NCBI GenBank assembly: GCA_945861275.1
Contig: CAMATZ010000017.1
Location: 9,753-73,752 of the forward strand
Source of the DNA: Bordetella parapertussis
Lineage (GTDB): Bacteria; Pseudomonadota; Gammaproteobacteria; Burkholderiales; SG8-41
DNA: 64,000 nt
Direction: 5' to 3'
Below the pieces are notes generated by a model. The model was given only the letters and a program-made list of their open reading frames with translations. It was not told where the DNA came from and made no database searches. Below, one piece after another: positions 29,048-30,268 of the stretch. Position numbers and translations under genes: made by a program. How positions within the stretch are numbered: the stretch's first letter is position 1; every line of letters begins with the position of its first letter.

Positions 29048-30268
29048 ATGCTTAAGAATCATTACGAACAAACCATGAAGGGCGTGCGCCTCTGGACCGG
29101 CGACATGGAAGTGGAGCAGGAGGCACTAAAGCAAATCCGCAACATTTCCACGCTGCCGATTCTGGCAGGACATGTCGCCATCATGCCGGACGTGCACTTC
29201 GGCAAGGGCGCCACGGTCGGCAGCGTTATTCCGACCAGAGGCGCGATTATCCCGGCCGCTGTGGGTGTCGATATCGGTTGCGGTATGGTGGCGATGAAGA
29301 CGCAACTTATCGCGTCTGATTTGCCGGACAGTCTGAAACATGTGCGTCATCAGATCGAACGCGATGTGCCGGTCGGCTTCAACTACCACGGCGACACCGT
29401 ACGGCCTGGTAATGAGGGCCTTGAAGGCCTGGCACTCAAGCGCCGCATCGATACACTGGCGCCGCGTTTTGACGCTCTGCAGATTATGGCGAGGGTGGGC
29501 AAGTTTGATCACAAGCGCATGTGGCGGCAACTGGGCACACTCGGTGGCGGTAATCACTTCATCGAACTGTGCCTGGACGAAAGCCAGGGCGTGTGGATCA
29601 TGTTGCACTCCGGCAGCCGCAACGTTGGCAAGACTGTCGGCGAGGCAGCCGTAACCATCGCTCGTGAACTGGCGCGGCAAAACCAGACTCACCTGCCGGA
29701 TCGTGATCTGGCGTGGCTCGACGAAGGCAGCATCGAATTCGACGAGTACATCACGGCGCTGCGTTGGTGCCAGGATTATGCGGCGCTCAACCGTGACATC
29801 ATGCTGCATCTGGTGAAGCGGGCGCTGGAGCATGTGCTGAGTCGCAAGATCGAAGCGCAGATGGCGGCGATTAACTGCCATCACAACTACGCCAACCTGG
29901 AAGAGCACTTCGGTGAACAAGTCTGGGTGACGCGTAAGGGCGCGGTGTCGGCACGTGAGGGGCAGTTGGGCATTATCCCGGGCAGCATGGGGGTGAAGTC
30001 TTACATCGTGAAGGGCAAGGGGCACGCGGACGCGTATGCCTCATGCTCACATGGCGCAGGACGCCGCATGAGCCGGGGTGAAGCCAAACGGCGCTACTCG
30101 CAGGCAGATCTGGAGCAGCAAACCGCTGGTGTGGAATGTCGCAAGGACAGCGGTGTAGTTGATGAGATTCCGGGCGCGTATAAATCCATCGATGATGTGA
30201 TGGCGGCGCAATCGGATCTCGTCGAAATCGTGCATACCCTGAAACAGGTGCTGTGCGTGAAGGGGTAG
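29048..30268 (+). CDS. rtcB: RNA-splicing ligase RtcB (3'-phosphate/5'-hydroxyl RNA ligase)
   Basis: AAGGAGG RBS. 406 aa. RtcB hallmarks: HVAIMPDVHFGKGATVGSVI, AAVGVDIGCGM, GGGNHF, SCSHGAGR (catalytic His). Confidence 0.85.
   Translation: MLKNHYEQTMKGVRLWTGDMEVEQEALKQIRNISTLPILAGHVAIMPDVHFGKGATVGSVIPTRGAIIPAAVGVDIGCGMVAMKTQLIASDLPDSLKHVRHQIERDVPVGFNYHGDTVRPGNEGLEGLALKRRIDTLAPRFDALQIMARVGKFDHKRMWRQLGTLGGGNHFIELCLDESQGVWIMLHSGSRNVGKTVGEAAVTIARELARQNQTHLPDRDLAWLDEGSIEFDEYITALRWCQDYAALNRDIMLHLVKRALEHVLSRKIEAQMAAINCHHNYANLEEHFGEQVWVTRKGAVSAREGQLGIIPGSMGVKSYIVKGKGHADAYASCSHGAGRRMSRGEAKRRYSQADLEQQTAGVECRKDSGVVDEIPGAYKSIDDVMAAQSDLVEIVHTLKQVLCVKG

Follow-up and report, generated by a model that had tools for sequence, protein, structure and literature searches.

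An rtcB RNA ligase gene inside a compact betaproteobacterial tRNA array cassette and its possible role in tRNA replacement and repair

Why should an RNA ligase gene lie in the middle of a run of tRNA genes? This question is raised by an rtcB gene in a 64,000-nucleotide (nt) stretch of contig CAMATZ010000017.1 (assembly GCA_945861275.1, deposited as Bordetella parapertussis), which is called the window below and to which all coordinates refer unless another locus is named. We consider it reasonably probable that rtcB belongs to an inducible cassette that provides both replacement and repair of tRNAs. This reading draws on the gene identities, intact catalytic residues, selection, linkage, mobility and alternative RNA pairings deduced from the sequence. 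The ligase gene and the tRNA genes on both sides of it are located as follows.

27027-29007, plus strand: tRNA array part 1, 16 genes, from ARAGORN, Rfam and folds
29034-29042, plus strand: predicted Shine-Dalgarno sequence of rtcB, GAAAGGAGG, starting 27 nt past the CCA of tRNA-Pro (29005-29007) and lying 5 nt before the ATG
29048-30268, plus strand: rtcB open reading frame (ORF), ATG at 29048 to TAG at 30268, 406 aa, predicted 3'-phosphate/2',3'-cyclic-phosphate to 5'-OH RNA ligase
30330-31153, plus strand: tRNA array part 2, 7 genes, Trp(CCA), Asn(GUU), His(GUG), Lys(UUU), Arg(UCG), a tRNA-like gene and a CAU tRNA

The rtcB product matches Pfam PF01139 with 423 bits over profile positions 1-426 of 426, i.e., the full length, and RtcB chains in the PDB with E values of 1e-28 to 2e-35. 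It has the same length and the same catalytic residues as E. coli RtcB and is 51% identical to it over the whole length. In alignments to the E. coli and P. horikoshii proteins six catalytic residues are kept, D75, C78, H170, H187, H279 and H335, which are equivalent to D75/C78/H168/H185/H281/H337 of E. coli RtcB and D95/C98/H203/H234/H329/H404 of P. horikoshii RtcB (crystal-structure sequence). We take these Asp, Cys and His residues to be the metal ligands and the guanylylated His that forms the His-GMP intermediate, as in the studies of the Shuman and Raines laboratories. The full-length profile match and the catalytic residues place the predicted protein in the RtcB family, and a preliminary description of the locus was right to call the gene full-length with intact catalytic motifs. 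Two uncultured betaproteobacterial metagenome-assembled genomes (MAGs), L001 and L002, encode RtcB proteins that are 92% and 91% identical to that of the window, and an identical RtcB protein is present on a contig assembled from metagenome run ERR3719144. The ratio of nonsynonymous to synonymous substitution rates (dN/dS) between the window and L001 or L002 is 0.05-0.06, which argues that rtcB is under strong purifying selection in these arrays.

The gene is flanked by tRNA-Pro(UGG) (28930-29007) upstream and tRNA-Trp(CCA) (30330-30404) downstream, both on the same strand, and no protein gene lies between rtcB and either tRNA. The same position between the two tRNAs had been given in the preliminary description, which placed the ribosome binding site 8 nt past the CCA of tRNA-Pro; that distance has to be corrected to the 27 nt listed above. 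It had also noted the lack of rtcA and rtcR, and a tblastn search of all 64 kb agrees: E. coli RtcA gave spurious matches only (the best, with E 0.006, covers 36 aa on the opposite strand within rtcB), as did E. coli RtcR (best E 3.9). Two side observations concern inteins. The best NCBIfam scores of the window RtcB are to 'intein-containing RtcB' models, outside the intein region, and the viral rtcB genes of L087 and L088 (IMG/VR; 7063-7293 and 8001-8996) are interrupted by about 700 bp at the catalytic GxDIxCG motif, which fits an intein or a homing-endonuclease insertion.

Is the linkage between rtcB and tRNA genes particular to this locus? The co-occurrence check that had been suggested for rtcB was carried out on the 80 closest genomic RtcB loci; at least one tRNA gene lies within 2 kb in 33 of them, and it is on the rtcB strand in 32 of these 33. 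In L001 and L002 rtcB lies between the same two tRNAs as in the window. L004 (Povalibacter uvarum; RtcB 67% identical) has 22 tRNAs around rtcB, while in L005 (RtcB 71% identical) rtcB is followed by 19 tRNAs. Six Caulobacterales-type MAGs carry 2-7 tRNAs immediately 5' of rtcB, and more than 20 Stenotrophomonas species have the order one tRNA, SPFH gene, rtcB. From these comparisons the linkage appears recurrent and more frequent than chance would give. A further locus, L003 (RtcB 70% identical), has rtcB next to a helix-turn-helix (HTH) gene and no tRNA genes; a tRNA-Leu(UAG)-like fragment lies between the two genes (within L003:9657-10010), which suggests a collapsed array.

The association is also found in viruses. 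The closest viral RtcB proteins, on IMG/VR contigs (63% identity), sit among 13-14 tRNAs, and in a rough neighbor-joining tree the window RtcB clusters with array-embedded RtcBs, with RtcBs of the tRNA-rich viral contigs and with that of Burkholderia phage BcepSaruman (61-63% identity for the viral group). The score of the window RtcB against PHROG 1075 'tRNA splicing ligase' is 474 bits, above its Pfam score, and an HNH endonuclease gene of the homing type is linked to the array. These features would suit a phage-derived hitch-hiker: the array with rtcB would be the captured tRNA region of a large phage, and rtcB would persist by descent and through the mobility of the cassette, with no host role tied to tRNAs. 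We regard this as improbable, though worth weighing. Strong purifying selection is seen in the bacterial copies, rtcB has a consensus Shine-Dalgarno sequence, other phage genes are absent in and around the cassette, and in Anabaena an rtcB gene and a tRNA array that are unlinked are nevertheless co-regulated (PMC8421152). Among the viral loci, an annotated Band-7 gene lies 330 nt upstream of rtcB in phiCbK, although no SPFH gene was detected in viral loci at E < 1e-3. As a side observation, Bordetella phage PHB04 (L083:11116-12430) has three tRNAs and a transfer-messenger RNA-like gene (tag ANDDYIRAAA) about 3 kb downstream of rtcB.

The bacterial relatives of the array bear on the hitch-hiker explanation from both sides. 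A search of soil metagenomes with the conserved hairpin at the head of the array as pattern returned 42 related loci. In at least six of the longer array loci (L098, L108, L109, L110, L111, and L116) the hairpin is followed by 10-18 tRNAs and an SPFH gene, without rtcB; in L098, a metagenome contig, an HNH gene comes next. Collinearity between L098 and the window is interrupted only by the lack, in L098, of the segment 29008-30411, i.e., rtcB and tRNA-Trp. Such sister arrays without rtcB are numerous, as might be expected of a hitch-hiker, and rtcB is best described from these loci as a facultative passenger or add-on of the array family. Because arrays without rtcB exist, the ligase need not be encoded in cis. 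The array of L138 argues the other way. Its DNA is 80-85% identical to that of the window, and it carries an HNH gene and then an RtcB gene at a different position. The L138 RtcB belongs to a different, cellular-type clade, with 66% identity to E. coli RtcB and 52% to the window RtcB. Two RtcB lineages thus appear to have been recruited separately into homologous arrays, in at least two events, and since they were recruited at different positions, selection on the linkage of rtcB and array is indicated. For experiments on the contribution of the ligase, the family provides natural variants: arrays that carry rtcB, others that do not, and one in which the RtcB is of the other clade.

How far does the unit extend, and what else does it contain? 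DNA homology with L001, L002, and L098 is confined to the segment from about 26240-26288 through 32586-33217, and the flanks are unrelated. Because the homology stops at these borders, the segment of about 7 kb (26240-33217) is taken to be a mobile unit that is transferred horizontally and carries no integrase. It comprises, in this order, an HTH gene, a leader ORF with terminator and anti-terminator, tRNAs, rtcB, tRNAs, an SPFH gene, and an HNH gene. The preliminary description had rtcB 'on its own', which no longer holds, as it is accompanied in a conserved cassette by the SPFH/Band-7, HNH and Cro/C1-type regulator genes. The two protein genes downstream of the array are the following.

31427-32572, plus strand: SPFH/Band-7 gene, 381 aa, Pfam Band_7 94 bits
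32654-33217, plus strand: HNH endonuclease gene at the right end of the cassette, 187 aa, alternative GTG start at 32621, Pfam HNH_5/HNH

The SPFH gene is, in the loci compared, the most constant protein partner of both the array family and RtcB. The identity of its product to homologs is 85% in L001 and L002, 49-71% in L004 and L005, 70-84% in arrays that lack rtcB and 42-48% in Stenotrophomonas, and its dN/dS of 0.10-0.12 also indicates strong purifying selection. In the window it is separated from rtcB by 7 tRNA genes alone. The P. aeruginosa rtc locus contains an SPFH gene too. HNH homologs have identities of 81% in L098, 77% in L138, 70% in L006 and 51% in L004, and a 30-aa remnant is left in L002. 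On Methylibium and Variovorax megaplasmids, more distant ones (44-47%) close arrays of 27 and 39 tRNAs at the 3' end. The sole candidate mobility factor is the HNH enzyme, which probably promotes the spread of the cassette. In these megaplasmid arrays we also observed other protein genes where rtcB would be: AlkB, HD-domain, and NADAR proteins are embedded in the 27-tRNA array of Methylibium petroleiphilum PM1 plasmid RPME01 (L139), and a release factor-like protein and SecB in the 39-tRNA array of Variovorax sp. SRS16 plasmid 2 (L140).

A setting in a prophage, an integrative and conjugative element or a plasmid was considered and rejected, with integrase, transposase and phage genes absent from the cassette and its flanks. 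The left flank consists of ordinary Burkholderiales-type metabolic genes (a CocE/NonD hydrolase, a PrpD-family protein, a major facilitator superfamily transporter, several TctC receptors, and an ABC transporter), and the right flank is likewise metabolic, with an SMP-30-like protein, a CoA-transferase, an acyl-CoA dehydrogenase, and an acyl-CoA synthetase. Around the L002 cassette, only an HTH_32 fragment is nearby. Membership in a defence system was likewise considered and rejected: PADLOC gave no match for the RtcB, SPFH or HTH protein or for the leader, and generic HNH-domain matches only for the HNH protein.

Could the tRNAs and the ligase be switched on together? The region ahead of the first tRNA contains the following elements.

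26291-26325, plus strand: GC-rich hairpin with T-run at the left edge of the cassette, resembling the array-head hairpin, with TCTCCGGGCTTTTTGT common to both
26332-26586, minus strand: Cro/C1-type HTH regulator gene, 84 aa, divergent from the array, Pfam HTH_26 34 bits (cutoff 22)
26630-26654, plus strand: putative operator, a TGCATAATATGCA palindrome with a third TTGCAT repeat
26662-26690, plus strand: putative promoter, -35 TTGACA (26662-26667), 17-nt spacer, -10 TAAAGT (26685-26690), 10/12 matches in the scan
26754-26948, plus strand: leader ORF, 64 codons, ending 29 nt before the terminator stem
26920-26931, plus strand: putative anti-terminator arm, GTGCAATTTGGG, in the last leader codons, complementary to the 5' arm of the terminator
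26977-27015, plus strand: intrinsic-terminator-like hairpin with T-run, GCCCGGA...TCCGGGC, 12-27 nt before the first tRNA

The Cro/C1-type HTH protein is a candidate local repressor. Its homologs (90% identity in L001, 68% in L002, 73% in L003 and 71-78% in L098, L119, L123, and L137) are always encoded upstream of the array or rtcB, and the operator-like repeats and the -35 box are kept in the window, L001, and L002. No promoter-like site was found by the scan from the leader to rtcB. A counterpart of the left-edge hairpin was found upstream in L109. The hairpin before the first tRNA is present in the window, L001, L002, and 40 of the 42 metagenome loci; the other two are cut near a contig end or have no tRNA. 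The leader ORF is open in all array subtypes with 40-66 codons, its stop codon varies (TAA, TAG or TGA), and its distance to the hairpin is nearly constant at 24-31 nt. Indels in it among the window, L001, and L002 are in frame. Because its substitutions show no third-position bias, the leader peptide sequence itself is probably unconstrained. The ORF was also considered as a conserved small protein; Pfam and PHROG are blank and third-position bias is missing, and it is kept merely as a possibly translated leader.

In the minimum-energy fold of the window, 26920-26931 pairs with 26978-26993. Among 32 distinct leaders, 85% of the cells in this anti-terminator pairing are paired, compared with 27-55% in slid controls; four pairs are altered on both sides, and none of 500 shuffles matches the observed score. 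Pairing in the terminator is 100%, and covariation is seen at the closing pair (GC 27, AU 4, GU 1), but the 3' arm of this hairpin belonged to the search pattern, which left the 5' arm and a single 3' position free to vary. Covariation support for the leader structures is moderate, given the relatedness of the leaders and the share of the terminator that the search pattern had fixed. We also tried the leader as a known riboswitch or T-box: with an E limit of 5, Rfam gives no match for the leader of the window, and those for L109 are at chance level.

From these elements we tentatively propose that a hitherto undescribed attenuator in the leader may sense translation and turn on the array family, together with the rtcB embedded in some of its members, which would make the cassette a self-contained tRNA replacement-and-repair device. 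A ribosome that reaches the leader stop codon would cover the anti-terminator arm, and the terminator would form 12-27 nt before the first tRNA. If translation is slowed, for example by cut tRNAs or poisoned ribosomes, the anti-terminator would form instead and transcription would read through into the spare tRNAs and the ligase gene. Such an attenuator could explain how these arrays sense translational stress without TrcR or RtcR, regulators that are discussed below.

About 23 tRNA genes, all on the plus strand, were called within 27027-31153: 19 by ARAGORN (27123-31153), two more by Rfam (27027-27120 and 28241-28314) and two by eye or fold. Part 1 runs Tyr-like, Leu(UAG), Gly(GCC), Glu(UUC), Ser(UGA)-like, Arg(ACG), Ser(GCU), Asp(GUC), Arg(UCU), Met(CAU), Thr(UGU)-like, Cys(GCA) with an insertion, Phe(GAA), Gln(UUG), Ile(GAU), and Pro(UGG). 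The Ser(UGA)-like gene (27522-27609) was assigned from its fold and a reading of its sequence. Within the coordinates used, CCA is clearly encoded in all but the first and last of the 22 tRNAs checked, a table that leaves tRNA-Cys outside. A further ordinary tRNA-Arg(CCU) is found outside the array at 38161-38236. As a side observation, tRNA-Phe(GAA) (28674-28749) is atypical, with the T-loop CTCGATA rather than TTCGAAT, and very unlike the chromosomal tRNA-Phe of L001; in contrast, the array tRNA-Pro keeps C1-G72 and A73. Four features of the array deserve separate mention.

27915-27941, directly before tRNA-Asp: strong terminator-like hairpin (27915-27935) with a T7 run
28366-28634, no strand: palindromic element of about 270 bp, resembling a miniature inverted-repeat transposable element (MITE), in the variable loop of tRNA-Cys(GCA) (28324-28665)
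31007-31080, plus strand: tRNA-like gene with a 6-nt anticodon loop
31081-31153, plus strand: CAU tRNA, the last before the SPFH gene, with A for U at position 33 in the window copy

The hairpin at 27915-27941 could be an internal terminator or a processing signal; a pattern search did not find its stem-loop (27915-27935) in L001, L002, L004, or L005. The last two tRNA genes (31007-31153) end 273 nt upstream of the SPFH start codon, and homologs of both precede the SPFH gene in L001, L002, and L005. By alignment, the homologs of 31007-31080 are L001:8271-8350, L002:12414-12487, and L005:8786-8859. Their acceptor, D and T arms are conserved and the anticodon loop is hypervariable, with 6 nt (CGCAAT, CCCAAA, CACCAG), or 13 nt in L001, and the gene may be a decoy or another non-decoding tRNA. 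The scaffold of 31081-31153 is also kept in its homologs (L001, L002, and L005); position 34 varies and gives the anticodons CAU, GAU, UAU, and AAU. Comparable unassigned tRNA-like genes were observed upstream of the SPFH gene in many metagenome arrays. It could be that the tRNA-like genes with strongly variable loops beside SPFH, the single tRNA of Stenotrophomonas included, are decoys or escape variants that arose in an arms race against anticodon nucleases.

In archaea and metazoa, tRNA splicing uses RtcB as its ligase, and the tRNA-Cys of the window carries a large structured insertion with its full cloverleaf kept, which brings up the idea that the array-borne RtcB joins the exons of array tRNAs with insertions, such as this tRNA-Cys with its 270-nt insert. 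The insert folds into a giant hairpin (-203 kcal/mol, z -12.7), and the 5' and 3' halves of the tRNA align to the intact tRNA-Cys of L002 and L005. However, an element with 86% identity is found at L001:7590-7858 between tRNA-Asn and tRNA-His, i.e., the insert is a mobile palindromic element that can lie between two tRNA genes, and on this basis an RtcB-dependent intron in tRNA-Cys was ruled out. The termini of the element have no second occurrence within the window. Moreover, the insert is in the variable loop, a bulge-helix-bulge motif is not evident, the cassette has no splicing endonuclease gene, and L002 bears rtcB together with an intact tRNA-Cys. Long perfect duplexes would be substrates of RNase III, the product ends of which are not joined by RtcB. 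A role as splicing ligase is thus disfavored and very improbable.

Under the preferred reading of a replacement and repair cassette, the parts would work together as follows. The repressor and termination at the leader hairpin would keep the unit off in normal growth, and its transcription would begin once translation is impaired. Processing enzymes, RNase P among them, would then free the tRNAs, and the remaining rtcB mRNA would have a strong Shine-Dalgarno sequence of its own. RtcB would reseal RNAs, mainly tRNAs, left with 2',3'-cyclic-phosphate and 5'-OH ends after cleavage by ribotoxins or anticodon nucleases, and thus replacement of the tRNA pool and its repair would be supplied at the same time. 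Co-transcription of rtcB with the tRNAs, inducibility, tRNAs as the substrates and a benefit to the host are all presumed in this scheme.

Several points weigh against it. Numerous sister arrays lack rtcB, which indicates that the tRNAs need no linked ligase and could carry it as a passenger. Some of the array tRNAs appear defective (tRNA-Cys with its 270-nt insert and the gene with the 6-nt anticodon loop). The internal hairpin at 27915-27935 could uncouple rtcB from the leader promoter. The leader ORF has no coding-type substitution pattern, which makes the ribosome-sensing part of the model weak, and in the commonest subtype the anti-terminator is disturbed by a mismatch or bulge, one position being unpaired in 18 of 32 leaders and another in 14 of 32. 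Finally, the tRNA specificity of RtcB is not established because the documented substrates of E. coli RtcB include 16S rRNA.

This last point leads to another explanation, in which RtcB serves general RNA or ribosome repair: it would mend rRNA or mRNA after cleavage by toxins of the MazF or colicin E3 type and would merely share a stress regulon with the tRNAs. Re-ligation of MazF-cut 16S rRNA by E. coli RtcB and repair of colicin E3 damage by RtcB2-PrfH are consistent with it (PMC10272220, PMC9304027, PMC9223846), the TrcR regulon of Anabaena holds the ribosome factors rsgA and rimK (PMC10272220), and other L-arrays, as the tRNA arrays of this type are called, embed AlkB, HD-domain, and release-factor-like genes that are not tRNA-specific. 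On the other hand, the window RtcB is not of the PrfH-associated type (RtcB2), as its TIGR03073 score is 141 bits against a cutoff of 272 and no prfH is adjacent. This RtcB clade repeatedly adjoins tRNA or tRNA-like genes, even single ones as in Stenotrophomonas, and the Salmonella rtc operon responds to nicked tRNAs (PMC7790460). A purely general repair function therefore seems to us rather unlikely.

The preliminary description had combined spare tRNAs and a tRNA-repair ligase into one module against tRNA damage. Recurrent linkage, recruitment of two RtcB clades, purifying selection and the parallel in Anabaena favor such a module, whereas rtcB is an optional part of it, with at least six sister arrays lacking the gene, and the idea is not new. 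L-arrays were defined by Santamaria-Gomez et al. 2021, who describe their horizontal spread, their presence in every Proteobacteria class and the protein genes 'linked or embedded' in them, including an HNH endonuclease and rtcB (PMC8421152). In Anabaena PCC 7120, rtcB is co-induced with the trn operon, the array of this strain, under translational stress although the two are unlinked, and tRNA repair together with tRNA supply has already been proposed for that array (PMC8421152). In 2023, the trn operon, rtcB (77-fold), the HNH gene all8564 (17-fold), and a slipin gene (42-fold) were reported to be derepressed as the TrcR regulon, to which rsgA and rimK also belong (PMC10272220). TrcR represses array, rtcB, HNH, and slipin genes jointly, and translational stress induces them (PMC8421152, PMC10272220).

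The window array resembles the L-arrays as a dense same-strand run of about 23 presumably supernumerary tRNAs that greatly exceeds accretive arrays in length and is horizontally spread (L-arrays have about 20-40), in its recurrence in unrelated contexts, and in the linked HNH and RNA-related genes. With Anabaena it shares the gene set of tRNA array, RtcB, HNH, and slipin/SPFH. It differs in its host, a soil betaproteobacterium rather than a cyanobacterium; in that the four components are contiguous, whereas the Anabaena rtcB and slipin genes lie elsewhere on the chromosome; and in its candidate regulator, which is of the Cro/C1 HTH type, whereas TrcR is a ribbon-helix-helix protein. The leader ORF with terminator and anti-terminator precedes the window array, and the passages excerpted from PMC8421152 and PMC10272220 make no mention of such an element.

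A second known association, RtcB beside a Band-7 protein and a 'b7a-tRNA', goes back to Burroughs & Aravind 2016 (NAR 44:8525) as cited in bioRxiv 10.1101/312249, and the family definition used here is taken from that secondary citation. In the window, too, RtcB is near an SPFH gene and tRNA genes are directly upstream of SPFH. Where that system has a single tRNA-like gene, the window has about 23 tRNAs, which cover most amino acids; its order is rtcB, tRNAs, SPFH, and the HNH gene, the HTH gene and the putative leader attenuator are added. In Stenotrophomonas (L012-L036, e.g., L021:8361-8436) the tRNA has a near-invariant scaffold with the anticodons CGU (Thr), CUG (Gln), CCU (Arg), and CUU (Lys); C34 is present in all, changes are limited to the anticodon loop, and a T-arm-like sequence lies directly 5' of the gene. 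This 'b7a-tRNA' looks like a case of anticodon switching or diversifying selection. A YrlA-like Y RNA upstream of it is not supported, with 24 bits where the gathering score is 69. The attempt to pair it with a particular window tRNA was not informative either, as identities of 0.52-0.73 do not discriminate (the best, 0.73, is with tRNA-Ile).

In enterobacteria the rtcBA operon is regulated by the divergent sigma-54 activator RtcR, which has a CARF-like domain, and in Salmonella rsr-yrlBA lies alongside. The window shares with it an orthologous-grade ligase, as judged from the identity to E. coli RtcB, but it lacks rtcA and rtcR, differs in genomic setting and presumed regulation, and so does not belong to this operon type; the divergent gene instead encodes the 84-aa Cro/C1-type HTH protein, and neither Ro nor Y RNA was detected in the window at Rfam curated thresholds. 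Phages with rtcB (BcepSaruman, phiCbK, PHB04 and the IMG/VR contigs) likewise combine the ligase with tRNAs, but the window cassette lies among ordinary bacterial genes and its tRNAs are tightly packed, whereas the phage tRNAs are interspersed with ORFs. The Pnk/Rnl1 pair of phage T4 follows the same logic of evading or repairing tRNA cleavage (by the PrrC anticodon nuclease) with another chemistry than RtcB, end-healing by Pnk and then ATP-dependent sealing by Rnl1.

The window thus joins two described associations, the L-array and the RtcB/Band-7/b7a-tRNA system, in one compact betaproteobacterial cassette. In about 7 kb it physically unites parts known in Anabaena only as a scattered regulon, which strengthens the case for their joint function, and it carries the association beyond cyanobacteria to soil Betaproteobacteria and Gammaproteobacteria and to phages. 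The compact cassette could be transplanted to test how well cells tolerate toxins that cleave tRNAs, nucleases of phage defence, and inhibitors of translation.

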